Assembly: GCA_045837725.1 (NCBI GenBank)
Contig: JBEWZL010000056.1
Span: 496,001-540,377, forward strand
DNA: 44,377 bases
Direction: 5' to 3'
DNA from: Vermamoeba vermiformis
Lineage: Eukaryota
Shown piece by piece: positions 1 through 43,215 of the stretch. A program made the position numbers and the translations under genes. A model generated the notes under the pieces. That model ran no database searches and was not told the DNA's origin. It worked only from the letters and a program-made list of their open reading frames with translations. Numbering within the stretch: position 1 is the first letter of the stretch; each line of letters begins with the position of its first letter.

Positions 1-3000
1 AGCTGATGTTCTGCGCAACGCTATTGAAGATATCGAGCCTGGCATTCAAGTTGAAGAGTTCGACAAGGTTCGATCTGGTCATCAATGCGACACGATGGTC
101 CAATCATTCTTTGACGACACTTCAAAGAAGGCACTCGTTATTCTCTTGGACATGACTAGATCAACGACTACAAGGATCAACTACCTTCGTCATCAAATTG
201 ACAGCTATTCTGCCGCGCACAGCGACCGTTTGGTATTCTTGATCATGCACTTCCCGCCTGATTTCTATTCTGCGCTCAAGCCAGCGCCGCACGTCATCTT
301 CTTGAACGATTGGAATTATCAGTACATTGACTCGCTGGGATTGGAGAGTGATATCTCCGACGATGCGGATCCGTTGGAGATCGACGCTCGAACTTGGCTT
401 GCAATCAGTTGCGGTCTTAATGTCGAAGTTTCGTTGACATCAATCAAAAGCACCTTCGAGAAAGCGTTCTTCGCCCAAGTTGACGCCTTAATGGGGCGCT
501 GGAATGGACGAGGCAGCACACCTGCCTACTTACCCAAATCTCGCAGCAAGATGTTGAAGGAGCTCTTAACCGATAATGCTTCTTTGTATGAATCTGCATT
601 GCTGGAGTTATCTCAACGCTGGCGGGACTACTTGCCGACTATAATGTCCGACATCAGTGCAGCAATTCAAAAGGGCTCTGTCGTTGACAGCATTGCAAGC
701 GTTGTATCGTCTTCCCTTCAATCATTGTTAGCGCTATTTGCTCTTGGATTCCTTCGCCGTTTGTATGGCAACGGTAACTTCGATGCAGTTCAGAATGCGT
801 TGAAGACTGGATCCGAAGACTGCAAGCAGCTCATCATGCTGGCCGTTAAAGCTATCAAAGTACCCAAGTTGAAAACAGTACTTCAGCAGAATTCTGTCAG
901 CGAAGAGCTTTTCACGATCGATTCAACATTCCTCAAACGCCCTTCGTTGCCTTACTACGACTTTATCTACGATATGTTGACTGAAGCTTATCGCAAAGCT
1001 AGAGCACAACAGGCCTCGAACAAGAGCTTTCGCACTCGAGTTCTCGATTACATTCAAGACAACACTGCACTCAAAGAGCTGGTTCAACACATTGACAAGA
1101 GCGAGGAGTTGAAAGACAAGTTCATCATGTGTTTTGTTCAACGCACTCTTGGCTTTGACAAACTTCGTCCCAGTCTGCAAGAGGTTTGCAAGCTCGTCAT
1201 TCAGAAGCTCGTCAACAGTCCTCGAGTTGTTGATTTGCTTTTCGTGAAGCTCACCCACGAAGACAAGTTTACGGTGTTGAACTCTTGTTTGATGCCGTTA
1301 CAAGCACTTGGTTCTGATGATTTGGACAACATACTCGTTGAAAGATTGCAAGAAGCTTTCCACTTGAACGCTCAGGTACGAAACACTTACGTGCCTTGAA
1401 TCGATCAACTAACATTTGTTCAGAATCTAAGCATTGCAGAAGTTGCACCGTTAATCGACATTGTCATTAGCAAAGCTACAGTTGATATTCTCTGGGAGAC
1501 GTTGAATGCTATTGGAGGTGATCGTGATCAATTGAACGAGTGGCAGAAAGCGTTCGGTCTGCTCTTTGACCGCTACCCTTCGCACTTCCATCTCCCATCA
1601 GCTGAGAAAAGCCAAGCATGGAAGTACAGCACGATGGTGTCAGCACTGTTACTAAGTCAACAGTTTGCTGATGAGTGCCTTCCGTTGTTCAACTCGTTCG
1701 AAGCAGTGGCCACAGCATGTGGTGTTGTTCCAAGCGATCAAGTCACTCTCCAACAAGCTCTCCAACAGAGCCACGCACTGATGCAGCAATTGAATATTGC
1801 ACCATCCGAAGAAGTCGTGTACTTCGCTCAAAAACTCTTGCACTCGCTGCTGATTCGTGCATCAACATCTTGCTACGGAAAGGCAAAGTACTTGATCGAA
1901 GAGTTCGTACGACTTTGCAATGGTAAGTAACTGAGCTATTCAACCAATCAATACTAACATAGAGTTAGATGGTGACGTGCCATTGTGGGCTGCGATCCCG
2001 TTCAGCTGGAAAGCGAACATGTTCAATTCATTGGTCAAAATGGCAACTTTAACGGTGCAAGACGAACTAATTCAATATGCTGCCAACGCACTGCAATCGA
2101 CGTTACCACTTCAGTACCAATTCAGCATCAATCCGTTGTCAAAACAGTTGACCAATGAAGAGGCTGCTCTCATCAACAAGCAACTCGTGCAAGAGACACC
2201 ATTGAAACCGTTGAATCCGTTGGAATCGATGCTGTTTTTTACGTTGCTTCAACAGTCAAAGATTAACACAACGAACACTGTCGGCACTATTGTGAAAAAA
2301 TATCTCGAGGTTCCCAACGCGTCAATCTTGGATCAGATTCACAGAGCAGTGTTAGCCACGAGACTGCTTCAGACTTTCGGCAATGACATTTCCACTGCTA
2401 ATTCTGTCACGCAATTGGTCCAAAATTATCCAACAGTTCCAGTCTCTATCATCGACACAATCAAGAAAGTCATCGCTCAAGAAGTGACAGTTCTAAATCG
2501 AGAAGCTTACTTGATTCAATCAATCGCTAACGACGAGCGCTTAGTTGAACTTCTTCAAAATCAACAGATACTCAAGCAAATTGGCATGGATGTGTGGTTC
2601 ATGAACGGTCCTGCAAATATTAGCAGCGATTACTTGCCTTCATTCATCATTGACGAGCATTCACCTCTTCATCGCAAGTACCAACAGATGAAGCAGAGCA
2701 TTGTCGCTGGCAGCGAAGAGCAGTTCTTGCAACTTCTCAATGAGAACACTGTCTTCGAGTCCAGAATGCTCCTCGTGCTCGTGACGTACTACGAGTTCTT
2801 CGTTCACGGTCGAGCATGTGACTTTGTCAAAGCCAAGCTGGACACAATTCTCTCTCAACGACTGAACTTAGTGCCAAGAGAAGTATCAGCACTCCTGTTC
2901 ATCAGCTTGGGTCCAAAGAACACTCCTGTCGAGTTCGATCCTGTGTTCTTGTTCACTACACATGCACAACAACGCCCACAAGTGTACGACTTGAAGTTAG

Positions 3001-4931
3001 CTCACATGCTTGTCAACATGCTTGCGATTGCCATGGGAACACCAACGGACTCCAATCACCTCTACATTCGAATCTTTGCTCCTGAGCAAATGCGAAGAAC
3101 TTTCTGTCCTGGTTCAGATTCAAACAGAGGCAATCACGATTGTGGCTTCAAGTACGATCAATGGACGAACAAATTGACTAGCGGAAGTCAGCCGCCTATC
3201 ATGGGCGATCACACTCTAAAGCGTCTAGCATTGAATACGACCACTTGGGGAGCTCTATGCTGGTGTTGCATTATTGACGAAAACGCTGCAAGTGTCATGC
3301 TAGATAATCAATATCATTTCCTTAACATGGTTGATGTCGACGTGCACGAGTTCGGAAATTGGTCTGCCAGAAAAGGAGAATTAAGTCCTGCCCAAAAAGC
3401 TCGAATATTTATCTTCCGCCGTTACGCAACGTTCTTACAGCTGCTCTACACAAACTACGATGTTTTGGATAATCAGATCCAACCAACTGTCTTCCTCAAC
3501 GAAGTCCTTATTGAACTCATGCATGATGCTGTTAGTCCTGCAAAGCCACCAGCGTTAAAGTCAGTCTTTCTCACCGTTCAAGAAGCGATTAACTACGAAG
3601 AACATATGAAAGGAATATTCAATCGAGTGCTGAACAACATCAAGGACCGTCAAGAAGTGTTCCAACTCGTTGAAAGCCCAATTTTTACATTGGCTCGCAA
3701 ACTCAAGCACAGCGTACGATCGTTTGGACCAATTTTCACATTTGATCAGTTTACAACTGTTTTGGCGAACGCACAGACCAATCGATACACGGACATGATC
3801 TTGGAATTTATTCGCAATATGAATTATCCCTCGTTGTTCACATGCTTGCAGTACGCAACACAACTGATCACGTTTTATCGCACTGTGAATGCACTGTTCA
3901 ACAATCGATTGACAGCGGATGACACTCTGAGACCCATCTCAGAATGCATTCAAATCTTGCGTATTTACGAATTAGAAGACGTTGTGAAACAGTTCGAGAA
4001 CACGTTTATTTTGTTCAAAAAGACTTGGAAGGAGATTACGTACATGCTCACAAAACTCGATCCGGAAGGGTGCATCGGACCCGCTTTCGAATTGGAAGTG
4101 CCACAAATCAACGACACCACGCCGTTCATAGTGTTAATATCTGATCCATACGATCCTCGTTGCATAGACATCATTATCAACGTACTCACTACGCTGTTCA
4201 ATCGTCAAGAGAAACTGTTGTCAATGTGCGACGCTATTCTGCCTGACGCCTGTCCTAATCCAGTGCAAGCCGAGTGGCTGCCATTGCACGCTGATCATCA
4301 ATTCATGTTGCTCAATAGCATTGATTTGGACGTCGTGAAACAGTTCTGCGTGGCACAGCTGACTTTGCCGGACAAGACCGAACTTCACGTCTCACACAAC
4401 GGGCTGTCCTTTAACGCGAAACATGTAGCCATGTTCTTGGTTCATTTACTCCAATCCAAGCCTGTTGTTCGAATCGGCAATCTGAAGCAACGATTCAGTT
4501 ACAAGAGTGGAGACGCAACCGATCTGACGGCTGCAAATCAATCGATAGGAATCAACGTCACTGATATTACACTAAAAGAACCCAAGATACTGTCCAACAT
4601 CCCATTGATATCACCGAGCGTTAATATTATTGAAAATAACCGCCCTCGCTCAGAGGCACTGACGGATGCGAAGAGGATTGTCGTCAGAAAATTCCGTGCG
4701 CAAAGAGGAGGAACTGAAGTGTTCAATCCTCACTCTATTCAAGAGCTGTTAACTGTCGGTGGTCAACTTCTTAAATTGAAGGCTGCCAAAGTACGAAAAC
4801 TAAATTCAGAAGATGAGATCCAAGAGTTTAGTACCCTTGAAAATGGAGAGATTGTGTACCTCACGACTGAAGAAGACGAAAAAAAGCTTCAAACTCATGC
4901 AGCCGCAGGTCATTCAACGACAAATATGTAA
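1..4931 (+). CDS. RNF213/mysterin-like giant protein, copy A (5'-partial; C-terminal E3-like region plus KHA-like domain, no USP domain)
   Basis: ORFs 95-1399, 1502-1930 and 1977-4931 join in frame across introns 1376-1423 (GTACG..CTAAC..CAG) and 1923-1968 (GTAAGT..CTAAC..TAG). Long stretches are nearly identical to 26476-~31010 of the AAA+ gene below. Confidence 0.88.
4671..4885 (+). other. KHA-like (ubiquitin/DCX-fold) C-terminal domain of copy A
   Basis: RIVVRK..GGTEVFNPHSIQELLTVGGQLL..KVRKLNSEDEIQEFSTLENGEIVYL fits the recalled KHA pattern (P.S..ELL..G...L....V.....EI.D...I....l.l). Confidence 0.6.
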
Positions 4932-4952
4932 AATTAAAAATTAAATTGTACT

Positions 4953-6275: not shown

Positions 6276-6575
6276 TATACAAATTAAACATATTTAACAA
6301 TTAAATTGATAGAGATCAAGGTAGAATTTAAACCGAAGATCTACGAGCAAAAAAATTAGCACTTACCCGCGAAGCCATCAATGAGGGTACCCAAAGGTCT
6401 TTGTATTATGTCGGTAATAATAAAATACTACTGCATTTGTGTTATTTTAATGGCGGTGCTGAAAAAATAGGAAGAAAGCGCAGGAAAGATTCTGTCCGAA
6501 AATTCCTCAATTATCCGTTATTTATCCTAATTATAAATGATATGACCACATAGAAAACATACTTAGTGGTCGATA

Positions 6576-8401: not shown

Positions 8402-8642
8402 CGTCAGCTTTTACTTACGTTAGCACCAATGAGAATGATGGACTCAGTGCAACCAATTCTCGTTCAGAAAGTGAAGATCGTTATTACTTAGTTGAAATTC
8501 CCCGGATTCAGACTTGGTCAACTTCGGTCAACTGAAGTTCAAAAACAAACATCACTTCACCAGCCATTAATATCGAGGTCCCGTGCCAGTAATTCATTCA
8601 ACTGACCTTGCGGTATTAAACAACACAAAGCAACAAAGAATA

Positions 8643-17419: not shown

Positions 17420-20400
17420 GGCCAATTTTCGGATCATGTCAGAGATCTGCATAACTTTATTCTCTTCGAAGTTTTGCCGGCAAAGGATAAATATAACAAA
17501 GTCGCAGTAATTTGGCTTTACGCTAAATTTCTACAGTAAGTGAATTTAAACAAATTGATCTGGTCAGAATTAATTTCCTTCCGTTAAGATATTCGAAAAT
17601 GAATAATAGCGACACGACCGAATTTGAACATAAGGTTTGGGTTATATTCTTTACCCAAACTCTTTCGACACTTCCGCAGTTGTTGCAGGAGAATCCAGCG
17701 TGGAAAGAACCGTTGAAGAAAATTCTATCCAATGTCACACTGTCTGGCATTAGTCATAATAATTTCATCGACAGACGAGATTTATCAGGCGAGCCAAAGC
17801 TATTCATCGTGACAACTTTAATGTTGTTGGACGATCCCGAAAAACCAAGCTATCTTGACTTGTGGAAACGATTTTGGGTTAAATATGGCTACGCACTGTT
17901 TGAATACAGTAAGCTGAATTCGTTGACGTGGCGCATTGCGTGGAGCAAGTTGTCTGGTTACGAACTATTTCAAGCTCCGTTTGACAAGATCACCTTCGAG
18001 GTATTTAACATTTAGAATCGTTACTTACTAAATCTTCCTTCATGCTTTGGCTCGATCTAACTTACTAATCCTCTACTAGAGCTTTGCTTTGTACGCATCA
18101 GACGTCATTGGTAGTTTTGAAATCGATTGGCCTCGAACGAATGCCTTGGAATTAACGGCAAAGATCTTGAACGGTAAGCGTTTCTGGTTTTACCCTGAAA
18201 AATCTAAGGATCTCTTTTGACCAAATCCGTAAACCAGTTAAACACAATTCTGATATTACGGGACAATATAATGACTAATATTGCCCTTAAATATACGGGA
18301 GTAATTTCAAGTCCGACGTCGTCGGATACGCTTCTCAGGTTCGATCATCACCTTTTTTGTTACCAATAATTTTTCTCTTGCTAATAATGCGTCAAACGCG
18401 TTATTACAACATCCTAGAAGCTCTTAGCGCAGTCCATTTTATTTTTAAAAATTGTCTGATAATTATTTTCTCTTTTGGCTACGGAATCTAACCCTGATAT
18501 TAGAGAAAGTTAACCTGAAGAATCATCGCACTATTCAAAACCTATCTACATGGATAAATGGTCTTTTACTGCTCACAGACTTCATTCATGGTCAATTGGC
18601 TGATCCGCAAGACATTCCAAAGGTCGACATCTGCAAGACTTTGATGCAGCACACAGTTAGCGTGGCGATCAAAGAGAAGCTGTCGCTCAAATCTGAAGAT
18701 ATAGCTCCCGAGCACAATGCAATACTGCAGCATGTGGTCAAGCAGTGTATAAACGATCTGTTGCCGAAGCTTGCGATCTATGACACTCAGTACAGGTAGG
18801 ATCCAAAGGTCCTGTTGTTAAAAACAGTTTTTAACTTAATCGGTCACAGTCCTATTCTACGCACCTACTTGACAGCAGAGAATATCATTTTTGTCCTCAA
18901 CAGACAACGAGTGCCAATCAATTCGATCCGCGATCTGACCGATCACGTGGCTTCAAAAGACAGTGGAAGCGCTCTGGCAATCTTCAAAGCACTAATTGAC
19001 AAGATTAGTTTATCGGAGCTGGCAAAGTTGTATTTTAGCTACCCGAATATGGCTAAACAGCTTCCTACACACATGATCGGACTTGATATAGAAAAGCGCG
19101 TTAACAGCATTACGGTACGTGAGAGTTTAGTATACTAATTATTTACTGACGTATTTTAGAACGTATATCAATCCATTTCGTTGACGGTAATGGAAGAAAT
19201 GCACCGTGTTGAGGATCGGAGCTACGAGTTGCCAGAGATTCACGTGTGGCTAACGGAGAAGTTGGCCGACGCAATTATCGAGAAGGGTTGGAGTAGCGAC
19301 AACAATCCTCTGCCCAGTTTGTGCAACTTTTTGGCGAAGTTCCTGACCAGCAGCGATAACGCGCCTTTACATCCTTGCTTGCTTCACACAATGCTTACGA
19401 AAGCTGCCGTGATGAAGGTGACGGCAAATCTACGCACTTGCTGGACAGCTCTCCCGCGAAACTTTCACGTGCTCTTCGCTCGTGACACGTCTCATCGAAA
19501 CGACCATTACAAAGCCGCTGTGTTGGTTGGTCCGCTCATCAATATGAACGAAGAGTTGAAGGTCGTGGGCACACCAAAGGTGCCTTTAAATCGCCTCAAG
19601 AGGTCGGAGTTGACGAACTTGTGCAGATTTTGGACCCAGCTGCAGAATCGTTTCATCACCGAGGTGATTAAAATCCACGACATGTTCGACGTTTACTCCG
19701 AAGAGTTGCGGCTGTTAGATGAATCAGCCGTCAAGGTTAAGAACGTCAATTTGATTATCGCTTGGCTGAACAATAAGCAATTTCAACCACCACTTGATGA
19801 GATCCAGGTGTCCGAGGATCCGTCACAAAGCGAATTAAATGAACTCGCGGTGCTACCTCAGATTGATGAAAACAGCTTCAAGCACTTGAACTTCTTCATT
19901 CCTGGAGAGAGCGCTCTGTTCAAGGCGATCTTTGACGACAAAAGAAAAGAAGATGCCGATTTACAGGTTTGTGCAATTCGACTAATGATCTGCCTCGCTA
20001 ACCAAAATCTTATAGGAATTGACAAGCGACGCTTTAAGCAAGATTATCGAGAGAACGAGTTTGTTTTTGAAGAATTTGTCGAGTTTGGCGAACTTGGAAA
20101 AGATCGCCGAATACCACGCTCGTTTCCGATCTCGATTTTCAAAAGAAATCAACTTGGTGTAAGTTGTGACGGCTCGGTATCCTTGCATGTATTAACATTT
20201 TCGATAGGGCCAAATTCTTCTCCGAAACAACGGATCTGAACGTCAAGGACTTGGAAAAGTACTTGTTAGATGCGTTTCAATTGCTTGAGTACATCGAGAA
20301 CGTTCACTTCCTCTTGGTGTGCTTGCAAGATTTAAACATTTTCCCCGAAGTCTGGGACGCCCTGCAGCAGCTCTACGACGAGAGGTCTTCTGTGCGATCG

Positions 20401-23400
20401 ATGAAGGCCAATTTGGTGCAGGAAAAGATTAACGAGATCAAAAACGTCATACCAAACTTGACTCCAGAGCACTTGGCTTTCTTCCAAACCATCAGTCACT
20501 CCCGAGACGTGATAAATTTTCTTGGAGAATTCACCGACGAAGCCTTCAATGCGCAAGTGCAGTTCCTCAATGATCACCTGCAAGGATTTCAACACGGACT
20601 CGATTTGGTAACTTCAGCCGTTGCAGTGCGACACTCTTTAGCCCCGGTTCTTGCTACCTTGCAAGCGAAGCGCCTTAAAGCTCCTGCGATGACATTCAAC
20701 GAGTTCTGTAACCAAATGGCAAACATTCTTGGCACCACCGTTAAAAATCACACCGAGCGGCTGAAGTACGTGATGGACAAGCTTTCTGAAGTGCGTGTCA
20801 ACTTCAAGCAAGACGCAAACTTGACCATCGAAGAGATGTTGCCTTACGTCGGCAAGTTGATTAATAACGGCTACTACACTTCGAGGACCACACGCCATCG
20901 AGGAGGAGCGGACATCTCTTTCAAGTTTAAAGAGTCAAATGAAGCAGTTGACCGTGTCTTCCCGTTGGCTGCATTGCAAGACCTCATTGTCGCAATCAAT
21001 GTGTTCGTTGACCAAGATAACATTGACGAATCAAAGCGAAAGTTGCTCGAAGCTTTCATCTCGCTTTACAACCTGGCACGTAAGATTCACGAAATGCACC
21101 TCGCCTTGGAAGAGACTGGTCATCCTGACTACCAAATGATCGAAGTGAAGCTGAACGAAATTGGTGACCTTAATGTTCCGCGTTACCAAGCCAAGCTCAA
21201 GGATCTTACGCAGCAGAAAGACGAGTGGTTGCGAGTCAAAGTTAACATCAAAGACAGACTGCTCATGCTCTCGAACCAGCAGATGGCAATTTTGATTTCA
21301 TTGATCCGAATCTATAATCAAAATGACGCGGTTAACGCTGCCAATGTACTGTCTCCGTACTGCTGGAAGTGCTTGCCAGATATCTCCGTCGCACAAGGAA
21401 ACCTATTCTCGGTTGATATTGTCGCTGAAAGCTTCAATGAAGTGAAGGCCAAGTTTGTCAAGCCAGTGGTATCAATCAGCGACGCCATCAATATCTTCAC
21501 CATGTTGCTCGAGCTCGTGATTCAGAAGTCAATCAAAGAAGAAGAGCTCATCTATTTAAAGAAGACTTATCCAGGAGCGGAGCTCGTGATGGCGCTCGGA
21601 ATGGATAACACTCAGATCTTCTATGCTTTGGCGGATCTGAACGATGAACCACCGCACCCTTCACAGGTTCTTGTTTGCACTCGCTCCACAAAAAAAGACG
21701 AGCTTCTTCGCATTGTAGATTGCGCCTGCTCAGCACCGTGGTTGACTTTCATTCTGGTTGAAGTCAACAACCTTCGAATGGAAGTTCGTGCCTCACTCAT
21801 CGACAGACTTTTGACTCTCGAGCAACAAAAACAACGACACTCATTGAAGCTGGTGTTCACATCTCAAACAGGCATCTCTGGCTTCTCTTTTATTTCTAAA
21901 CGAGACGTGACCGTGGAAACGCTTGGTCAAGTGAAGCACTACCTGGCAAATGAGTCGAAGCGGTTCAAGCCAGACATCGCTCGAAATCGTTATTTTAAGA
22001 CGTTGGAGATCGTTCAAGGAAATCCTGGTGAAGGAAAGTCAACTTCAATTCGACAATATTTTGCACAACAAAGCATCTACTGCTTGGAAATACCATTGCA
22101 AGAAGACTTCACCGTTGCAAACTTCATCCACAGAGTGCAAACAGCCGTCGCTGATGCTCGTAAGAGTGGTCAGAAGGACGTTGGCATTCACTTGAATATT
22201 CTACCGTACATCGACTTCCCTCTTGTCCACGAGTTCTTGTATTCGTGGATGCTCTTTGGTGTGATTTACGACAGCAACATTGGTGGCATGTACCAGCTGC
22301 CAACTGATTTGAATTGGCACGTCCTCGCGGAAATTGGCAGTGCTCCAGCCGAAGACAAAGAATATGGAAGCTACAATAGCCCTGCCAAAGTGTTGACCGC
22401 TCTGCCAGCGTTGAATTTTGTGGCTGAAAAGAAGGACAGACTTCTGAAGCAGTTGGTTTTGGACGACAACATTCGCTTGGCTTGTGCGTTCTACCACCAC
22501 TTCCACAACAGCAATCAGGTCACCACAGCTCACATCATGGCTCTCGTGCCCGTAGCAAACGATGATACTGCGTACAAGATTATTGCACAGATTGTCCAAC
22601 GGGAGCTACAGACTCTTGGCGAGCATCGTAATTTGTTCATCTTCCAACGCATGTTCCTTCACTTGTTGGCAGCTCGATGCAAATGGATCAAGTCCTACGC
22701 TGAGCGATTGACTGTCTTGGCTCGTGAGTTGGCAAACCCTGACTACGTTATCCCAGTCGAAGAGCAATTCTTCTTCAAGCAGTTCATGACGTACTTCATC
22801 ACCGAGGTCGCGCACTTTTGCAAAGCGAACATCAGCTTGAACATCAAGACACTGCCTGTCATTTCACTTCGTGAGGCAGACTCGTTCTGCTTTGTTGATT
22901 GTCAAGGCGCTGGTGTCAAAGACAAGGCAAAGGCTGGCTTGCTTCATCTGACCGGAATCCACGAAACAATTCAGAACCCTAAAGTCATCTTTTCTGCATT
23001 AGCCCTTGCGCTTGGCATCACTGACACACGACGCATGTTCAATGTCATTCGACAGCAACGATTCACGATGACTTTTGACTTCGTTGTCAAGTTATTGCTT
23101 CTCAATGACAGACGAATTGTTGGTCAGAACGTCATTTTCAAAGGAGATACGGGCCTTGGAAAGACCGAAACTCTGGATTTATTCGCTTTGGTACTCAATT
23201 GCAACACCGATTTAGTACCTGACATTATCAGTGATACAGCGCAATTCGTCACCAACAACGTACTTCGCGAGGCTAGCGTGCTTAGAATTCCAAACTGGAA
23301 AAAGCACTTGGATGTTCTTGGCGAAACTGTCCCTTCAGTCAACAAAATCACTGGCGTCATTCGTGAAGTTTGCAATGAACAAGTACCCGTGGTTCAAGGA

Positions 23401-26400
23401 GCAGAAAATCAAGAGCCACAAACCTATTTCCCGTTTGTCGCAAAGAACCTGCTCGAATTCATGCGTCGAATGCTTGCAGCCTATCCGTTGATCGAGTTGA
23501 CTCCAGGATTGCTCAAAGTTTCGAGAATGACTGCGGAGGAATCGGCGAAGGATGTCAATGAACTGGTGCAGCTGTTGGAGGAATTCTTGAAGGCAAAGAT
23601 TCGCCAGCTGTTCCACAAGATTACAATGCACGCTGGTATGACTGCGGAGCAACTCCGAACGAAAATCAACGGATTGAAAAAGTTGAGCGCCAAGATTTCA
23701 CAGACAAGTCCTGACGTCAAGTTGGTTGTCTTTATCGACGAGTTCAACACCACCTCGGTAAGTCAGATTAGTCTATCATTTGTCATTGATGTGTATTAAT
23801 GTTATTTTGCAGATCATGGGCATGGTGAAGAACATTCTGTTCGATCATCGACTTGACGGAGAGCCCTTGCCGTCCAACATCTTCTTTGCTGCTGCAATGA
23901 ATCCTTATACGGTGAAGGAGGTGTCGGGCGAGCTCGATTACACGGGAGTGACGAGCAGCACCAAGTCATTGCCCTTCATTGTCCGACCAAATCCTCAGGC
24001 CATTGATCTGCTCGCGGTTGCATTTTCTGACTTTGACCAAGCCCAAGAGGAGCGGTTCTTGACGGTCTTCAGCAAGACGCGAGACGATCTTGGTAGCCCA
24101 GAAGAAATGGAAATCGTCAAGGACTTCCTATTAGCTGGGCAAAATCAACTGCGGGCTGCCAACATGGAAAGAATTCACGTGTCAATCCGAGACATCATGC
24201 GAGCCATCGATTTGTTCGTCTACTTCTCCAAGACCCCTGCAGGAGCAGCTCTACTCGGATTACCCGCAGACAGCTGCGTTCCTGGACATCACTATTATTC
24301 TCAACGATTCTGGCATTCGCTGTTCATGGCATGCAACATCACTTACCGCATTCGATTGGCAGCAAGAAGCGATTTGCGCAGTGACTTGCTCGCAATTTAC
24401 AAAGCTTTGTGCTTGGCCAATGACTACCACGGTGAATCAATTGAGGATGTAATTGAACGATGCTACACTCACCTCTACGAGTCAACTGCAATACCCGATG
24501 GCATTGCTCGTACAAAGACTTTGATGGAGAATCTTTTCGTGCTGGTCACCTGCATTGACGCAAAGATTCCTGTGATGATTATTGGTCCGGCTGGCACATC
24601 GAAGACTCTCAGCTTTACCATCACTGCGGATAACATGCGCAACAAGGCTTCTTCAAAGGAGTTCTACCGCTTGTTTAGCCAAGTTCATCCGTTCCGCTAT
24701 CAATGCACCCAACATTCAACGGATACGGAGGTTGATGGAGTCTATCAGTCGGCCATTAGGCGCCAGAAGTTCTTTGAGAACGACACTGCCAAGAATACTG
24801 AGCGCAGTACAGTGTTTTTGGACGAAGCCAACTTGCCTGACGACTTTGAAATGCCACTGAAAGTGTTGCACTATCACTTGGATCACCCTGTTGTCTCGTC
24901 GGTCATTCTCTGCAACCGCATTCTGGACGCACCAAAGACGAACAGAGCTGTCGTACTTCAGCTGCCTCCTTCGCTCACTCAAGAGGATTTGTATGCTCTG
25001 GCGAAGGGCAGCTTCTCTGCGGCAGACGAATCCGAGTACAACAGACAGCTTTTGATGGCTCTTTGCAGCGCGTTCTCAAAGATCAACAACGTTGCGAAGG
25101 AGTTCCGCGACAAGTTCTTCCAACATCGCGACTTCATCTACTTCTTACGTTTCTTAAGAACACAGTCCTCTGTTGGACAGTCAGCCCGTATTCAGTTGAC
25201 ACCAAAGCTTCTCATCAATGCTTTGGAGCGCAATTTCAACGGCATTCCCTTCAACGTGTTCCGCAAGATCGTTCAATTGTTTATTGAAGAGTTCAATCGC
25301 TTTATGATGCACAAAGAAACTCCTTGGGATGTTGATAAGATCATTGGCTCTTTGAAGAACAGAACGATTCAACTAATCGAGGAGAGTTTGGCAGAGACTG
25401 TTAAACCTGACGAGAATCCCAACTTGGCACCGTTCCGTTACATGATGTTGCTCGATCCCACGGATTCAGACGCTGCCGTCTCTTTGTTCTTGTCAACATT
25501 CAAACAAGAAGTGGAAGTCTGCTACGTTGGCGAGTTCGACGACGATGCTACAGACGAGGCTCGTGGCAATCTGATCCGCAAAGTCACTCAATCAATGGCA
25601 ACTGGCAAAACTGTGCTTCTTCTGAACGTGTTGCCCATCGCCACTTCGTTCTACGATTTATTCAACAGACACTTCTCGAAGAAGCCTTCTGCGGACCAAT
25701 CCTACTACGCGTACATTGCCGTTGGCTCTAATTCTCGTCCTTGCGTTGTTCACCCGAACTTCAAGGTCATTGTGCACATCCCAATATCGTCATTGGCAGC
25801 AACTCACCTGCCGTTCTTGGATCGCTTTGAGAAGTATCAGCTGTCCGTTGAACAAGTGCTCGAAGCGAAGCTTTCCAAGTTGTCGCTTCAGACTTTCTAT
25901 TGCGCGAACAATACTAAGATTGACGGATTTACAATGTTCAAGAACGCTCTCACTGACATGGTTGAAAAATTGCACGGCGCACAATGCAACGATCAACTGC
26001 TGTACGGAATCAATCCCAAAGAGACAGTGTCGTCATTCATTTATGCGATCTTGCAAAACACACTGTCGGTGTTTTCCGAGACATCAACCAAGATCATGCC
26101 TATGATTTGGGAACCGTTTGAAGTCGAGGAGTGGGCAAAGGCTATCACTGACGAGAGCAACGAAGATCCTGCTTTGAGTGAAGAATTTGCTGCTCCGCAA
26201 GCTCAACCCGAGGACGACGAAGAGGCACTTGTCAATCCTACAGAGCACATTCGAGCAGCCATTCGTCAGCTGAACTTGCATTTAATGCAACTGGCAAGAC
26301 CTGAAATCGTGTTCAATTGCAGAACACTGCCCAAGGCTTACGTGACACACTACTTGCTGAAACAAGAACACTTCAGCGTGCTTCGTTTCTTGAAGCAGTT

Positions 26401-29400
26401 GCTCAAGGCCAAGGCAAACGTCAACGTCAAGAACAAGTGGACAGTCTACAGTCGAAGTTCAGCGTACTACCACCAAGCTGATGTTTTGCGCAACGCCATT
26501 GAAGAAATCGAGCCTGGCATTCAAGTTGAAGAGTTCGACAAGGTTCGATCTGGTCATCAATGCGACACGATGGTCCAATCTTTCTTTGACGACGCTTCAA
26601 AGAAGGCACTCGTTATTCTCTTGGACATGACTAGATCAACGACTACAATGATCAACTACCTTCGTCATCAAATTGACAGCTATTCTACCGCGCACAGCGA
26701 CCGTTTGGTAGTCTTGATCATGCACTTCCCGCCTGAACTCAACTTCATCTCAAAGCCAATTCACCAAGTTATCTATTTGAATGATTGGGATTACATGTAT
26801 ATTGACTCCCTTGGTGCGAAGAGCGAAGAAATTTCCGACGATGCAGATCCGTTGGAGATCGATGCTAGAACTTGGATTGCACTTGGTTACGGCCTTAAGA
26901 TATCCAAAGTCACACCGTCTTCGATCAAAAACGCCTTCAAGAAAGCGTTCTTCACTCAAGTGAACAAGTTCATGGCACGCTGGAACGGACGCGGTAGCAC
27001 ACCTGCCTACATACCTGCCGCCCGCAACAAGATCTTGAAAGACTTTATGGATGCCAATCCTCATTTGTACGAAGAGGTTTTAATGCAGTTCTCTCGCAGC
27101 TGGAGTGACTCGTTGCTATCCGTTGTCGTATCCGACATCAGCGAAGCCATTCAAAAGGGCTCTGTTGTTGACAGTTTTGCAAGCGTTGTCTTGTCTTCGC
27201 TGCAATTCTTGTTGGCTCCTTTTGCTCTTGGATTCCTTCGCCGTTTGTATGGCAACGGTAACTTCGATGCAGTTCAGAATGCGTTGAAGACCGGATCCGA
27301 AGACTGCAAGCAGCTCATCATGCTGGCTGTTAAAGCAATCAAAGTGCCGAAACTGAAGACAGTGCTTCAGCAGAATTCTGTCAGCGAAGAGCTTCTCACG
27401 ATCGATTCAACATTCCTCAAACGCCCTTCGTTGCCGTACTACGACTTCATCTACGATATGTTGACTGAAGCTTATCGCAAAGTGAGATCTCAATCCGCTT
27501 CCAACAAGAGCTTACGCACTCGAGTTCTCGATTACATTCAAGACAACGTTGCACTCAAAGAGCTGGTTCAACACATTGACAAGAGCGAGGAGTTGAAAGA
27601 CAAGTTCATCATGTGTTTTGTTCAACGCACTCTTGGCTTCGACAAACTTCGTCCCAGTCTGCAAGAAGTTTGCAAGCTCGTCATTCAGAAGCTCGTCAAC
27701 AGTCCTCGAGTTGTTGATTTGCTTTTCGTGAAGCTCACTCACGAAGACAAGTTTACGGTGTTGAACTCTTGTTTGATGCCATTACAAGCACTTGGTTCTG
27801 ATGATTTGGACAACATACTCGTTGAAAGATTGCAAGAGGCTTTCCACTTGAACGCTCAGGTACGAAATACTTTCACGTGCTTTGAACTTGAACTAACATT
27901 TGTTCAGAATCTAAGCATTGCAGAAGTTGCACCGTTAATCGACATCGTGATTAGCAAAGCTACTGTTGATATTCTTTGGGAGACGTTGAATGCTATTGGA
28001 GGTGATCGTGATCAATTGAACGAGTGGCAGAAGGCGTTCGGTCTGCTCTTTGACCGTTACCCTTCGCACTTCCATCTCCCATCAGCTGAGCAAAGCCAAG
28101 CATGGAAGTACAGTACAATGGTGTCAGCACTGTTACTAAGTCATCAGTTTGCGGACGAGTGCCTTCCATTGTTCAACTCATTCGAAGCAGTGGCCACAGC
28201 ATGTCGTGTTGTTCCAAGCGATCAAGTCACTCTTCAACAAGCTCTCCAACAGAGCCACGCCCTGATGCAGCAATTGAACATTGCACCATCCGAAGAAGTC
28301 GTGTACTTCGCTCAAAAGCTCTTGCACTCGCTGCTGATTCACGCATCAGCATCTTGCTACGGAAAGGCAAAGTACTTGATCGAAGAGTTCGTACGACTTT
28401 GCAATGGTAAGTACCTGAACAATTCAACCAATCAATACTAACCTAGAGTTAGATGGTGACGTGCCATTGTGGGCTGCGATCCCGTTCAGCTGGAAAGCGA
28501 ACATGTTCAATTCGTTAATCGATGCAGCAACTCCCGCAGTCAAAGAAGAGATCGTTCAATATACTGCACACGTGCTGAAAGAGGCACTGCCACCTCAACA
28601 CCAATTCAGCATCAACCCGTTGTCAAAGCAGTTGACTAATGAAGAGGCTGCTCTCATAAAAAAGCAACTCACACTAGAGACACCATTGAAACCGTTGGAA
28701 TCGATGCTTTTCTTTACGTTGCTTCAGCAATCGAAGACTAGTACGAACAATCTTGGTGCTATTGCTGCAGAGTATGTCGAGTGCAACAACGCGTCAATCT
28801 TGGATCAGATTCACAGAGCAGTGTTGGCCACGAGACTGCTTCAGACTTTTGGCAATGACATTTCTACGGCTAATTCTGTCACGCAATTGGTCCAAAATTA
28901 TCCAACGGTTCCAGTCTCTATCATCGACACAATCAAGAAAGTCATTGCTCAAGAAGTGACAGTTCTAAATCGAGAGGCTTACTTGATTCAATCAATTGCT
29001 AATGACGAGCGGTTGGTTGAGCTCGTGCGAGATCAGCCATTGCTTGAACGACTCGGAATGGCTTCTTGGTTTATGAACGATGCAGTTGATGTCAGCGGTG
29101 GTCACTTGCCTTCATTCATCATTGACGAGCATTCACCTCTTCATCGCAAGTACCAACAGATGAAGCAGAGCATTGTCGCTGGCAGCGAAGAGCAGTTCTT
29201 GCAACTTCTCAATGAGAACACCGTCTTCGAGTCCAAAATGCTCCTTGTGCTCGTGACCTACTACGAGTTCTTCGTTCACGGTCGAGCATGTGACTTCGTC
29301 AAAGCCAAGCTGGACACAATTCTCTCTCAACGACTGAACTTGGTGCCGAGAGAAGTATCAGCACTCCTGTTCATCAGCTTGGGTCCAAAGAACACTCCTG

Positions 29401-32400
29401 TCGAGTTCGATCCTGTGTTCTTGTTCACTGCACACGCACAACAACGCCCGCAAGTGTACGACTTGAAGTTAGCTCACATGCTCGTCAACATGCTTGCGAT
29501 TGCCATGGGAACACCAACAGACTCCAATCACCTCTACATTCGAATGTTTGCTCCTGAGAAAATGCGAGGAACTTTCTGTCCTGGTTCAGATTCAAACAGA
29601 GGCAATCACGATTGCGGCTTCAAGTACGATGAGAAGACCGGCAAACTTACAAGTTCAAGTCAGCCACCTATCATGGGCGATCATGCTCTGAAAAGAATGG
29701 CTTTGAATACGACCACGTGGGGAGCTCTGTGCTGGAGTTGCATTGTAGACGAAGCCTCTGCGAATGTTGTGCTTGATCCTGGTCTTCATTTGCTGAACTA
29801 CGTTGACGTTGATGTTGGCGAGTTTGCTCAGTGGGCGAAGGCAAACACTATTCTCAGCCCGGCACAAAAAGCGCGAAGCTACATCTTCCGTCGCTTTGCA
29901 ACGTTTTTCCAACTTCTCAGCACCAATCACGAAATTGCAGAGCAACAGATCCAACCGAACGTCTTCCTCAACGAAGTGTTAATTGAACTGATGAACGATG
30001 CTGTTAATCCTGCAAAGCCAACAGCATTGAAGTCCGTTTTTGCTAGCGCTCAAGAGGCAATTAACTACGAGGAACATATGAAAGGAATATTCAATCGAGT
30101 GCTGAACAACATTAAGGACCGTCAAGAAGTGTTCCAAGTGCAGCTCGTCAAGAGCAACAAGATATTTGCGTTGGCCCAAGGACTCAAGCGCAACTTGTGT
30201 GGATTTGGTCCTATCTTCTCATTCGACAAATTCACGACTGTCTTGGCGAACACTCAGGTCAATCAATACACGGACATGATCTTAGAATTCATTCGCAACA
30301 TGAACTCGCCTTCGTTGTTCACTTGCTTGCAGTACGCAACACAACTGATCACATTCTATCGCAACGTGAATGCACTGTTCAACAATCGATTGACGACAGA
30401 GGATGCATTGAAGCCGATCTCAGAGTGCATTCAAATCTTGCGTACTTACGAATCAGAAGACATTGTTAAGCAATTTGAGAACTCGTTCGCTGAGTTCAAG
30501 AAGAGTTGGGAGGAAATATCCTACCTCCTGATTACACTTGATCCCGAGGCATGTGCTGGCCAAGCCTTCGAATTGGAAGTGCCACAGATTGACGATGACA
30601 CGCCGTTCATAGTGCTGATCTCTGACCCGAGCGATCCTCGCTGCATGGACTCAATTATCAAAGTGCTCACAACGCTGTTCAATCGGCAAGAGAAGCTGCT
30701 GTCAATGTGCGATGCTATTCTCCCTGACGCCCGTCCCGAGGCAGTGCCAGCTGAGTGGCTGCCATTGCACGCTGATCATCAATTCATGTTGCTCAATAGC
30801 ATCGATTTGGAGCACGTGAAACACGTCTGCGTGTCGCAGCTCACTCTGCCTGACAACGTCACTATTCACGTGCCCCACAATGGCTTGTCATTCAACACAC
30901 AACGCGTTGCTCTGTTCCTGATTCGCTTGCTTCAATCCAAGCCAATTATCAAGCTGGGCAATCTGAAGCAGCGATTCAGTTACAAGATCGGAGACACAGC
31001 TGACTTCTCTACCGTCGCTTCGCTTGGTCCTTCTAAACCGACTCCATCTCAACTGCCCGTTGTTGAGCTCGTGAGGGCTCAGATGGGCGTTAATCCAATT
31101 CAATACAAGGCGAATTCAATTCGTGACAAGAGCAGATTTGCTACTCCGCTAGAACTGACGGATCGCGTTCGTGTGAAACAACTGTTGAGCACATTATCAG
31201 ACGTGCAATTCAACAAGTTATGCGATCAGTTGGCAGCGATTCTGACGTGGATTATGTTGCCTTCTGTGAACGAGAACAATCAACTGAACGGATTGCTGGT
31301 AGAAGCGAAGAACACGTTGCTTCATTCGCTGGCCAAAGAAGCGTTGCAGTTCGCCGACGAGGATCCTATTGGTCCAATGAGCTTTGCAGCGTGTTACTTG
31401 AAGGAGATTGCCCTGCTCGTAGTTGACTTCCATAATCTCCGAGCCAAGCTGTTCCAGTACTCTCCTGACGTTGATGAAGAGCTCTCTGAAGCGGCGCAGA
31501 CCAAGCTCAGCCATTTTGCCTCGACTTTGACTCATAAGAAGAAGTGGTTCGACAAGATCAAACAGTTGCTCGGAGAATTGCAACAATCACGCGTAGCGAA
31601 TTTGTTAGAAGCGAACATGCACAAGCCACTTCGAATCTTCATCAAGAAGGAGATGGCCGCTCATGGCTGGACCAACGAAGAAATCTCTGCAGTGTTGCCT
31701 GACGAAGTACAAGCACGAAATTTTGGTGCCTATCTGCGACACATGTACCGCTTGTGTGGCGAGTTGTCCTTCTCGTTCTCTGCTACCAAATCATCGGCAG
31801 CTGTGGTTGAGCAAGGAGTGTACGTGGAGCTCGTGCCTGATGGAATTATCACTGCTGAACCAGAAGGCAGCAATTACGTTGAAGCACCTGACTATAGCAA
31901 GCTTGAGGAGGAAGCAGAGACGAGCGAGACACCGAACTTGATCACTGAGTTCAACGCACCAAATGTCAAGCCTCACACTGTCGAAGTAGAGCAGCAATCG
32001 GCCAGTGAAACAGCCCTGGTAACTGGCACCCCACGAGATATTCCCAAGCTGATCAAGAACCTCGGCAACACGTGCTACATGAGCTCTGTACTTCAAGTTA
32101 TTACTGCGTTGTCGGAAATTTCTTCACAAGGCTTGATTACTCCTCTAACGCAACTTATTCATCATTTGTACGCCAGTGATTCCGACGACAGTTACTACCC
32201 TCGAAAGTTCCAATCAGAGTTCGCAGCAATGAAAAAAGCACACAAAAGGTTCAAGATTGGAGAGCAGCAAGATGCGCACGAGTTCATGGTGCACTTGATC
32301 GACTCGCTGCCCAAGGCTTTCAACCAACTGTTCAAGATTGACTTGTCGTACACGATCACGTGTCAGCACTGCCAGCACGAGGAAAAAGGAACAACCGAAT

Positions 32401-33543
32401 TGTTTGACTTGCCTCTTGACATCAAGCCAACGGGTCCCAATCAGCTTCACGAAATGTTGAATGCGTTTATCAACGAGCCAGTCGATGAATGGTGCGTTAC
32501 TGAACTCACGTTAGTTTGTTTAGTATTAACGTTGTTTATTAGGATTTGCACGAAGTGCCAGCAGAAGCACGAGCAAAACATCAAGCACTACAGAATCATG
32601 AAGTTGCCACAAGTTTTGGTTCTGGTCTTCAAGCGGTTCAAAACGACAATGTTCTCACGCGAAAAGGATAGCACTGCCGTTGTCTTCCCAACGAAACACT
32701 TGAATTTGGGAGGTTTTGGCGATGACTTGACATCTTTGGACTTGTGCGGCTCAGTGGTACGTGCTCATTGACAAAACAGCGCCTTGACATAACGCTACTA
32801 TTGCTATCTAGGTCCACACTGGCAGTCTTAATGCTGGTCACTACTACAGCTATTTTATGCGCAACGAACAGTGGTACGCAGCTGATGATTTGACTCAACG
32901 AATCAGACACATCTCGGTGCCGAGCAAATACGAATTGAATGGCTCGTACATTGTGTTCTATTCTGCTGCTCCTGTGGTACCTGCAGTGCACGTGCAAGTA
33001 CGAAGTGAGGCAGGGCAAGAACAGCAGGCCCAGGAAAACACTGCCACCAACGTGACTAACGCAGTCGAGCCGTCGCAAGATTTGCAAGCGGAGTTACTTC
33101 CTGAGCTATCAACGGCTGTCCAATTGAATGAACTCCTCACCCAACTTGAGCAAGGAGCGATGCAGACCGATGCACCTCAAGTTACGCAACCAGCTGTGGA
33201 AGTCAAAGTAGTACCTGTTGTAGCAACATCGATGACGACCTCGGTGGTTGAAGCGAAATCTCCCGAGAGCGAGATCAAAATGACCAGCTCGCTTACCAGT
33301 TCAGCACCAGCACAGCCAAAGACGATCATTGTGCGAAAGTTAGGTGCGAAGAGAGGTGGTGCTGAAGTAGTCAATCCTCAATCGATTCAAGAGCTGTTAA
33401 CTGTTGGCAGTGAATTGCTCGAGATTCATGCTGTCAAAGTGCGCAGAGTCAGAACTGAAGCTGAAATCCGTGACTTGAATGCGATCCAGCACGAAGAAGT
33501 TGTCTTCTTGACTACTGAAGAAGACGAAAAGGATTTTAACTAA
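17420..33543 (+). CDS. RNF213/mysterin-like giant AAA+ ATPase (about 5,000 aa) with C-terminal USP deubiquitinase and KHA-like domain, copy B
   Basis: In-frame joins across introns 17536-17588, 18001-18079, 18174-18503 (tentative), 18796-18849, 19115-19159, 19967-20015, 20159-20207, 23758-23812, 27860-27907, 28407-28452, 32492-32542 and 32757-32811. Walker A-type motifs GNPGEGKST (22018), GDTGLGKT (23143) and GPAGTSKT (24584), Walker B VVFIDEFNT and VFLDEAN. RNF213-type signatures: MPLKVLHYHLD, LDAPKTNR, ALERNFNG, SMATGKTVLLLN..SFYDLFN, CVVHPNFKVIV, PFLDRFEK. The true start may lie upstream of 17420. Confidence 0.9.
26476..31010 (+). repeat. Direct segmental duplication of window 1-~4530 (paralogous RNF213-like region)
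   Basis: Long near-identical blocks at an offset of about 26.5 kb, including both introns at the same positions and lengths (48 and 46 nt). Confidence 0.92.
32050..32962 (+). other. USP (peptidase C19) domain within copy B
   Basis: Cys box NLGNTCYMSSVLQ (Cys 32073-32075), QQDAHEF, CQHC/CTKC zinc ligands, LPQVLVLVFKRF, and spliced His box VVHTGSLNAGHYYSY..WYAADD (His 32839-32841, Asp 32884-32889). Confidence 0.92.
33319..33540 (+). other. KHA-like (ubiquitin/DCX-fold) C-terminal domain of copy B
   Basis: TIIVRK..GGAEVVNPQSIQELLTVGSELLEIHAVKVR..EAEIRDLNAIQHEEVVFL, homologous to 4671-4885. Confidence 0.62.
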
Positions 33544-38559: not shown

Positions 38560-38695
38560 ATCAATACACGGACATGAACTAGAGTTCATTCGCAACATGA
38601 ACTCGCGTAAGATGCATCGAAGCCAATTTCAGAGTGCCTTCAAATCTTGCGTACTTATAAATCATAAGACATCGTAAGTTCAACTCGTTTGCTGT
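38560..38695 (+). pseudogene. Decayed fragment of an RNF213-like paralog
   Basis: TCAATACACGGACATGA..TTCATTCGCAACATGAACTCGC..GATGCAT.GAAGCC.AT.TCAGAGTGC.TTCAAATCTTGCGTACTTA matches about 30262-30495 with internal deletions. Confidence 0.85.
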
Positions 38696-42589: not shown

Positions 42590-43215
42590 CGATGGGCTTG
42601 CAAATTGAGCGCGAAAAAGCAGTCAAAGCGATCGGGCAAGTTCGCAGCTCATTGTCGCTCAAATCAGTCTGCGACTTATTTCAACGATGTGCCACACGTT
42701 GATGCAACTCTTTCAACATGATTCCGATGATAGCTTCAACCCGAGCTGAGTTCCAAGTCCTATGAACTAAATGCCTCGTACATTGTGTTCGAATACTCGA
42801 CCTCACTTCCCGTGCGCCTGGTGCACGGCGTACAAGTACTAAGTGAACCAGGTGCAGGAGAGTCAACCAGTCCAAGCGACCAATAACAGCATTGTTGAAG
42901 CACCTTCTCAAGATCTGCACGATGAACTACTGGCGGTTGAATGCTCTTTTGACCCAAGTTGAGGAAGGCACAACAACCTGAAGATCACGCAACCAATTAT
43001 TGTGGAAGTAAATCACGTGCCTGCAGTATCAACGACTGGATCTGTTGTACCTACCTCGAGTCACGTGCCCGTAGAAACATCAATGACCAGCTCAGTTGTG
43101 GACCTGAAGAAAGTTCCCGTAGCGAGGTGGTACTGAAGGTCAATCCGAAGTCTATTCGAGAGCTGTTAACTTACTACAGCGGCTGTTGGTGGCGTTTTGC
43201 TCGTGATCTGGATCA
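42590..43215 (+). pseudogene. Decayed 3' end (USP, linker, KHA) of an RNF213-like paralog
   Basis: Collinear matches to copy B: GATTCCGATGATAGC (~32177), CTCGTACATTGTGTTC (~32943), CAAGATCTGCA..GAACTACT (~33075) and GAGGTGGTACTGAAG..TCAATCC..GAGCTGTTAACT (~33353-33402), with deletions and frameshifts. Confidence 0.8.

Follow-up and report, generated by a model that had tools for sequence, protein, structure and literature searches.

Two RNF213-family paralogs with unlike C-terminal tails in Vermamoeba vermiformis

Mammalian RNF213 (mysterin) is a giant AAA+/E3 ligase of cell-autonomous immunity and a Moyamoya disease factor. A same-strand cluster of giant ATPase genes of this family lies in a 44,377-nucleotide (nt) stretch of Vermamoeba vermiformis (GenBank assembly GCA_045837725.1, contig JBEWZL010000056.1, positions 496,001 to 540,377 of the forward strand), hereafter called the window, in which position 1 is the first letter. 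Two genes of the cluster, copy A and copy B, share a long block and then end in unlike tails. This raises the question whether B gained its longer tail or A lost it, and whether the shorter form is still maintained. The original prediction took the two as a paralog pair that differs by a deubiquitinase (DUB) cassette of the USP type, carried by B on a 2.3-kb insertion. In our analysis, the RNF213 family appears here with a tail architecture not described before, and one of the paralogs is a natural deletion form. Sequence comparison indicates that B keeps the ancestral layout, and that A is an old paralog that lost ~2.2 kb of coding sequence in frame, comprising a module at the position of the RNF213 C-terminal domain (CTD), the USP domain and most of a linker.

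The shared block and the two tails

Comparison of positions 1-6500 with the whole window by blastn gave two collinear blocks on the plus strand. In the first, A 1-4517 corresponds to B 26476-30998 (85.1% identity over 4542 columns, E 0), and in the second, A 4671-4882 corresponds to B 33319-33530 (69.8% over 212 columns, E 7e-21). The two are separated by 153 nt in A and by 2320 nt in B, the latter including introns 32492-32542 and 32757-32811. The motif QRFSYK.GD is common to both copies (A 4488-4514, B 30969-30995), and in A only ~52 amino acids (aa) separate it from the C-terminal domain. Hence, both the paralog pair and the expected collinearity up to this motif, followed by about 50 aa to a KHA-like domain in A, were borne out. 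The features of the two genes, all on the plus strand, are:

1..4931, +, copy A: last 4.9 kb (3' end) of an RNF213-family gene, with its 5' part outside the window
1969..4530, +, copy A: E3-module-like core (AF2, Foldseek, VIA), ending at QRFSYKSGD (4488-4514)
4533..4670, +, copy A: junction linker of ~46 aa, in place of ~2.2 kb of B coding sequence
4671..4892, +, copy A: KHA-like beta-grasp domain (PF11834), with 12 aa and the stop codon (4929-4931) after it
17527..33543, +, copy B: full-length-looking RNF213-family gene, from a chain of open reading frames (ORFs) and intron motifs; start approximate
23816..25868, +, copy B: dynein-like AAA core segment (phmmer against the PDB: RNF213)
26476..30998, +, copy B: block homologous to A 1-4517, at the identity given above
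31089..31841, +, copy B: conserved ~250-aa module at the RNF213 CTD position (local profile); absent from A
32019..32970, +, copy B: USP deubiquitinase domain (PF00443) with two introns inside; absent from A
32971..33318, +, copy B: acidic, Ser/Thr-rich linker (translation)
33319..33540, +, copy B: KHA-like domain (PF11834, E 7e-5, 23.2 bits), 53% identical to that of A

The genes are eukaryotic and have very short introns (46-55 nt) with GT..AG ends. Copy A consists of exons 2-1375, 1424-1922 and 1969-4931, and its spliced coding sequence of 1612 codons has a sole, terminal stop. An apparent stop at 1399 and a frame change at 1930 are accounted for by short GT..AG introns, each with a CTAAC branch site. 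Both introns are conserved at matching places in B, and the second is fixed by a contig of sequencing run X6 that skips 1922-1967 (shifted by +1: 1923-1968, with GT..AG ends). The introns seen in B include 19115-19159, 27860-27907, 28407-28452, 32492-32542 and 32757-32811; upstream of 27860 the B exon model is provisional, and motif scans of B were run on eight separate ORF pieces. Intron 32492-32542 is 51 nt long, in frame, stop-free and inside the USP domain, and its removal restores the W-x-C-x2-C stretch of the relatives. ORF callers read through it and thereby add 17 spurious residues. Removal of the 55-nt intron 32757-32811 joins GSV to VHTGSLNAGHYYSY, the USP His box.

The USP domain of B is a family member by sequence. 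Its main-exon part matches PF00443 with E 1.6e-24 and 87.4 bits, against a cut-off of 23.9, the final 50 profile positions lie on the next exon, and its matches in the PDB are USP2, USP21, USP4 and USP12. Both catalytic boxes are intact: the Cys box reads GNTCYMSSVLQ, and the His box, with its GHY motif, reads VHTGSLNAGHYYSY. B thus resembles USP-family DUBs in its above-cut-off PF00443 match and in both boxes. A20 is an example of a single polypeptide that combines ligase and DUB activities. B is like such chains in having a USP joined to an E3-type scaffold in one chain, and unlike them in that its scaffold is RNF213-like and its ligase activity only putative. In copy A, Pfam found no UCH/USP match. 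When the 46-aa linker of A was aligned to the segment of B that A lacks, only scattered blocks of 3-12 residues appeared, with no credible similarity; no USP relic is visible in that alignment, and finer placement of the breakpoint is impossible.

RNF213-like scaffold and KHA-like tail

The affiliation with RNF213 was established on copy B for the ATPase part, as the AAA part of A is outside the window. In a phmmer search of the PDB with B 23804-28380, only RNF213 chains were retrieved (nine distinct sequences, best E 8e-44). The best AAA match aligned query residues 5-688 with residues 2535-3222 of the RNF213 chain, which places a dynein-like AAA core in B. Furthermore, B contains Walker A motifs at 22018 and 23143, and weak Pfam matches to the dynein-type families AAA_5 and AAA_7. 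Pfam found no family in the 998-aa last ORF of A.

The core shared by A and B was studied by structure prediction. An exhaustive search with the last exon of A against 1.84 billion representatives yielded 148 proteins at E<=0.001. The alignment for AF2 combined the A exon with 43 other sequences, namely the matching exon of B and 42 of the 148 relatives. The resulting model was all-helical and confident over residues 1-845 (mean pLDDT 79.4, mostly >80), with residues 846-984 at pLDDT <50 in the whole-exon model. The nine top Foldseek matches in the PDB were all RNF213 (E 2.7e-10 to 3e-7), the tenth having E 0.018. VIA-align superposed model residues 1-840 on human RNF213 4111-4979 (Z 21.8, root-mean-square deviation (rmsd) 7.0, 700 residues), with the next entry at Z 5.4. 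In mouse RNF213, according to an excerpt of Ahel et al. (PMC7311170), residues 3589-4926 form the E3 module and 3940-3999 the RING within it; a bilobal helical CTD comes next. Given a mouse-human offset of 57 (R4753K/R4810K, title of 6tay), the mouse module end at 4926 corresponds to human 4983, and from the VIA ranges and this offset the core of A begins shortly past the place of the RING and reaches as far as the E3 module does. Hence, the region before the breakpoint, expected to be E3-like, is predicted to have the RNF213 E3-module fold.

Several results weigh against reading this core as a working ligase of the known type. The profile built from the same 44-sequence alignment found no RNF213 match among PDB sequences, its best hit being an unrelated protein at E 0.034. 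Pfam, run on seven pieces of A and B at E<=0.01, found no RING, and a RING regular expression matched neither spliced A nor any of the eight B ORF pieces. Only four Cys are encoded by the exon that directly precedes the core. For the RZ finger, an excerpt of a published study lists C4505, H4509, C4516, C4525, C4528 and H4537 as conserved; there, three Cys and one His bind zinc, besides the nucleophile C4516 and H4537 (PMC11549300). A search for the RZ pattern likewise found none in spliced A or the eight B pieces. The ligase activity of the A/B core is therefore putative and unproven, as the modelled fold comes with no known catalytic motif.

The family has a different set of conserved residues. 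In the 44-sequence alignment, numbered on the last exon of A, D388-C389 is kept in 38 of 38 sequences, C699 in 34 of 34, R482 in 41 of 41, H447 in 36 of 42 and H361 in 32 of 38, together with a PGS motif. D388-C389-G390 is encoded at 3129-3137 and C699 at 4065-4067. At the point in the chain that corresponds to the RZ finger, C389 alone is invariant (C377 12/38, H387 3/38, H412 13/40). C389 lies near the RZ position by simple interpolation of the VIA ranges, which is not a residue superposition.

Compared with mammalian RNF213, copy B shares the giant size, the AAA core by sequence and a helical module at the CTD position, and the core of A shares the E3-module fold over ~700 residues. In contrast, neither a RING nor the RZ Cys/His pattern was found in A or B, and the protist family shows an invariant D-C-G and a second invariant Cys instead. 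It also differs from the mammalian protein by extra C-terminal USP and KHA or SAM domains, and in A the module at the CTD position is entirely absent. Our literature search, which covered the 15 top-ranked papers on RNF213 homologs and evolution and, by title, those on RNF213-like proteins, homologs and orthologs, found no paper on protist relatives of RNF213 or on an RNF213-USP fusion.

Both copies end in a KHA-like domain, as the original prediction had stated. The last 93 residues of A matched PF11834 over all its positions (1-67 of 67) with E 0.002 and 18.5 bits; like the match of B, this is below the gathering cut-off of 29.6. Homologues of the A tail exceeded that cut-off (P0140 62.5, P0134 50.8, P0142 and P0077 36.5, P0117 32.2, P0087 31.5 and P0128 30.2 bits), and PF11834 was found at E<=0.01 in 42 of the 47 aligned members. 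The domain lies at most 15 residues from the C-terminus in 50 of 52 sequences. Its hosts include proteins with ARM and TIR domains (P0081), a TIR domain (P0140), a caspase domain (Peptidase_C14; P0087), a RapGAP domain (P0134, P0104) or a USP domain (P0117, and the B-type fragments P0065 and P0119), as well as LRR_6 and ankyrin proteins. The KHA-ended proteins P0081, P0140, P0087, P0134, P0104 and P0096 look like an immune or cell-death signalling set with one adaptor. No paper joining the KHA domain with the TIR domain was found in the literature.

Folded alone by AF2 with 47 sequences, the KHA of A gave a confident beta-grasp (pLDDT 85.9). Its best Foldseek matches were doublecortin and CIDE-N (E 3e-3 to 1e-2), and VIA ranked five CIDE domains first (Z 9.3-8.2), including DREP2 (Z 9.3, rmsd 2.0, 72 residues) and FSP27 (Z 8.9). 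Ordinary ubiquitin-like folds reached Z 7.2-7.5, however, so that the CIDE margin is less than 2 Z units, and at E<=0.01 the 47 members matched 24 families, of which CIDE-N was not one. The tail is most probably a KHA-type beta-grasp, with a predicted fold closest to CIDE-N.

According to an excerpt on plant channels, removal of the KHA domain abolishes clustering of the KST1 channel (PMC8644596), which is the clustering role described for the KHA of plant Shaker-type K+ channels. The A/B tail resembles that domain in similarity over the whole 67-position profile and in its extreme C-terminal position, and it differs in scoring below the Pfam cut-off and in its hosts, which are RNF213-like, TIR, caspase, RapGAP, USP, LRR and ankyrin proteins and no channels. 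CIDE-N domains (DFF40/45, DREP1-4, CIDE-A/C) are its best structural match and share the beta-grasp, with the reservations on Pfam and Z just given; an excerpted study describes homotypic, head-to-tail assembly of CIDE domains of cell-death proteins into filaments (PMC8647176).

Prediction of a complex between the KHA domains of A and B gave an ipSAE of 0.35 (median of three), against 0.01 for the best control. Contacts agreed to at least 92% between runs, in which the domains' own alignments were not used, and partner pLDDT was at least 86. Of 78 solved complexes, 51 attained the mark of this test, as did 2 of 108 mismatched pairs. However, scores up to 0.60 that reached the mark came from only 5 of the 78 solved complexes and from all 4 passing mismatches (of 180); the tool rates scores in this range as wrong in most cases, except where the guess was already likely before the test. 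The model thus lends weak support to docking of A-KHA to B-KHA, which the original prediction had put forward as possible, raising its odds a little.

Direction of the change and probable maintenance of copy A

To compare tails across the family, we divided the tail of B into four parts (core, helical module, USP and KHA) and ran local searches of the 148 relatives. Pfam was run on 17 and then 29 relatives, and five over-long relatives were scanned with the local USP, SAM and helical profiles only. With an iterated profile, the ~250-aa module directly after QRFSYK was found in 25 of the 32 family proteins in which the core is followed by 450 aa or more (B included, where the profile scores 2.3e-60). 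The seven misses are the most divergent members, of which P0002, from the heterolobosean Willaertia, still aligns there by eye. The module profile found no match in A or in P0003, a relative of A described below. The tails are:

helical module only: many family members
helical module, USP, SAM: P0001, P0006
helical module, USP, KHA: B, P0010
helical module, USP, then cut by the contig end: P0046
USP: P0033
helical module, KHA: P0013
helical module, SAM: P0062
SAM: P0049, P0051
KHA without helical module: A and P0003 only (41 rows)

The C-terminal end is thus modular across the family, with tails of helical module only and with USP and SAM, USP and KHA, KHA, or SAM added, as had been proposed. 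Two other parts of the original prediction need revision. The difference between A and B is not a mere DUB cassette, because A also lacks a conserved module that is not USP. The 2320 extra nt in B are real, but they point to a deletion in A rather than an insertion in B, because the helical module, present in 25 of the 32 proteins, is ancestral. That it is the equivalent of the RNF213 CTD is suggested by position alone, a point against the account preferred here. An ESM Atlas search with this module yielded no usable match.

A third, decayed copy downstream of B also bears on the direction. The original prediction had noted USP remnants in it, and remnants do exist, although the USP part is the extreme C-terminal end only:

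38560..38676, +: core fragment with an in-frame stop (blastn, tblastn)
42675..43180, +: USP end, linker and KHA start, with frameshifts (tblastn, blastn)

The core fragment matches B 30262-30309 and 30402-30466 by blastn at 94% and 88%. In the second remnant, tblastn pieces correspond to residues 1458-1497, 1487-1583 and 1606-1619 of the B tail and blastn matches lie at 42761-42790 and 43118-43171; of the USP, only the last strand is left.

The view that B gained a cassette of helical module, USP and linker by insertion, with A as the basic form, can draw on the scarcity of the USP, which follows the core only in P0001, P0006, P0010, P0033 and P0046 among relatives with at least 150 aa past the core. 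It can also draw on P0013, whose helical module and KHA without USP imply that the USP was gained or lost somewhere in the family. The tails of the outgroups argue against it. The helical module is near-universal and lies directly past the core in distant relatives, including the heterolobosean protein judged by eye. Relatives that share no more than 28-35% identity with A and B have helical modules and the USP-KHA arrangement; tails with USP and KHA (P0010, ~32%) or with USP and SAM (P0001, P0006) lie at 28-32% identity. A core joined to KHA without the module is confined to A and P0003, and the decayed third copy is likewise of the USP type. Because the module and the USP-KHA arrangement are found in distant relatives and the third copy is of the USP type, A lost ~2.2 kb of coding sequence and B gained nothing. 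We therefore rejected an insertion in B as very improbable. Hence, the ancestral layout is that of B, judging by its relatives: AAA core, E3-like core, ~250-aa module, USP, linker and KHA. In A, the end of the E3 module is joined to KHA through about 46-52 aa.

The original prediction had named an assembly haplotig as an origin of A that would overturn it. The sole support for an assembly or haplotig artefact is that the window begins inside gene A. A and B occupy the same strand of a single window, separated by 26 kb, at 85% identity and with unlike neighbours. A 5606-nt Logan contig of DNA run X2, probably from the source sample, covers 4292-6500 with 0 differences and runs through the junction into the unique LRR gene; it comes from a second assembler on the same data and is not independent. 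The same junction is present in P0003, which belongs to another record. In view of these three observations the artefact was rejected, its chance being next to nil.

P0003 (978 aa, on a 3733-nt NCBI contig) is 92% identical to A from end to end, with the same junction and the same tail. Among its residues 1-240, 44 informative sites group with B and 2 with A, whereas among residues 361-870, 119 group with A and 6 with B. Nucleotide identity between A and B ranges from 0.69 to 0.97 per 300 nt, and dS, the synonymous divergence, is uneven along the core (0.17-2.4), with ratios of nonsynonymous to synonymous divergence (dN/dS) of 0.08-0.26. This variation in dS and identity shows that gene conversion has been superimposed on an old duplication, and in the 5' portion of the block common to A and B it is still going on. 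A maximum-likelihood tree built on the unconverted region, with four distant outgroups (P0013 was dropped, being too short there), split A and P0003 from the rest at 98% and grouped B with P0149, a B-type relative of 1336 aa with UCH, at 91%. As the tree pairs A with P0003 and B with P0149, the duplication and the deletion are both older than the split of the two genomes.

Copy A has kept its reading frame in the window and shows purifying selection. Over its last exon B is 75% identical to A. All seven exon indels between the two are multiples of three (3, 3, 3, 9, 3, 6 and 3 nt), and an eighth gap, of 1 nt at A 4540, lies beyond the end of homology. For the three exons, the Nei-Gojobori method gave A/B dN/dS values of 0.27 (458 codons), 0.08 (166) and 0.20 (849), and for the KHA tail it gave dS 1.26 and dN/dS 0.25. 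These values sum both lineages and are blurred by gene conversion, which limits what they say for A itself. The KHA tails of A and P0003 differ in 4 of 87 residues.

Run X6, from a relative, has contigs over 23 of 30 bins at 90-99% identity, including pieces 4301-4519 (8 differences) and 4659-4919 (15 differences) at 94-96% identity. The latter carries the same 3-nt deletion at 4705 as P0003. Joints 2029->2112 and 2548->2632 in X6 were not used, as they are without GT..AG ends and look like paralog or contig breaks. No listed X6 piece bridges 4520-4658, and the RNA nature of this run is guessed. No RNA run was among the matches listed for the A tail. RNA runs X20 and X22, under the same species label, contributed 44 and 78 reads, all only partly on the stretch; none was at least 99% alike, one per run was 95-99% alike and the rest 90-95%. 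These reads represent a more divergent strain and are uninformative on copy A. They match only a conserved 33-nt stretch, 4474-4506, and their flanks read like the B-type P0149 (GESADFSTV); as these flanks indicate, a B-type gene is transcribed in that strain.

The chief alternative is that A is a non-functional or dying paralog, with essential parts deleted and its frame kept by recent conversion from B and by short time. Several points speak for it, and to that extent against a maintained A. A lacks the helical module that 25 of the 32 long-enough relatives keep, as a dying copy would; the cluster contains a third copy that is plainly dead; tracts converted from B can be made out; the 5' part of A (~12 kb by analogy with B) is outside the window and may be broken upstream; and in the runs matched no transcript from the window's own strain was found. 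On the other side, the A-specific unconverted stretches, with dS of ~1-2.4, still have dN/dS of 0.08-0.24. The KHA tail, at 70% identity, is beyond repair from B, yet it is open and confidently folded, with few differences from P0003. Moreover, the open-frame junction is conserved in a second genome, the tree puts the deletion before the split, and run X6 contains a spliced contig. A dying copy therefore seems unlikely to us. Within the window, and as far as the sequences tell, the frame of the A form has been kept open since the genomes split, and A looks maintained.

Neighbouring genes and possible roles of the pair

The neighbours of the two copies differ. Copy A is followed by a convergent gene:

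4953-6293, -: LRR_6 gene, converging on the stop of copy A

The stop of A (4931) and the end of the LRR_6 ORF (4953) are ~21 nt apart, so the 3' ends of the two genes must abut or overlap. Past LRR_6 lie, in order, an H3-tail-like gene, a protein kinase gene (-), a CBS-pair gene (-), a Cys-rich membrane-like ORF and then copy B. The first 19 residues of the ORF at 8583-11064 (+) resemble the N-terminal tail of histone H3 (MARTKQTARKSTGGKAPRK), whereas the rest is non-histone. ORFs downstream of it on the same strand have a weak VWA_2 match (E 8.5e-4) and a Cys-rich, RING-like end, for which Pfam made no call. On the 3' side of B are several family-less ORFs, a minus-strand P-loop gene inside the dead third copy and an EF-hand gene. 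The P-loop gene (38933-41610, several ORFs) has a GPPGVGKT Walker A motif and sits between the third-copy remnants; Pfam gave it no family. None of the neighbouring genes looks functionally linked to the A/B pair.

For the pair itself, we propose that the KHA beta-grasp may serve as a homotypic docking or polymerising domain. Through it A and B would join common assemblies, perhaps together with the TIR, caspase and RapGAP proteins of this lineage that end in KHA. The USP of B could trim ubiquitin near its own E3-like module and thereby make its output self-editing or self-limiting. A would add an E3-like module that lacks both the DUB brake and the CTD-like regulator, so that net ubiquitin output would not be the same for the two copies. 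The activator/brake pairing of the original prediction is compatible with this mechanism, provided that the putative ligase activity is real. As a whole, the account of an ancestral B, a deleted but maintained A, KHA docking and differing ubiquitin output is in our judgement the best explanation, held with moderate confidence.

A wider and doubtful proposal, to which we give little credence for now, is that KHA is the homotypic adaptor of a protist defence or death network that polymerises RNF213-like, TIR, caspase-like and RapGAP proteins. KHA would there play the part of the death-fold and CIDE domains of animals, and the DUB-bearing B and the DUB-less, CTD-less A would co-assemble and set ubiquitin output, with A as an unrestrained form or a decoy. 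The Cys of the D-C-G motif would be a new transthiolation site replacing RING and RZ.

If copy A is dead, the finding comes down to ordinary gene-family decay. In this protist branch of the RNF213 family both known catalytic zinc fingers are absent, while the scaffold was kept and a DUB and a possibly polymerising tail were added. The presence of KHA in both TIR and caspase proteins would point to an undescribed immune-type adaptor domain outside animals and plants. The A/B pair would represent a natural deletion experiment, in which scaffold and docking domain stayed the same, the CTD-position module and the DUB were removed, and the deleted form was conserved. These findings may thus offer handles on the regulation of the RNF213 E3 module and its CTD.

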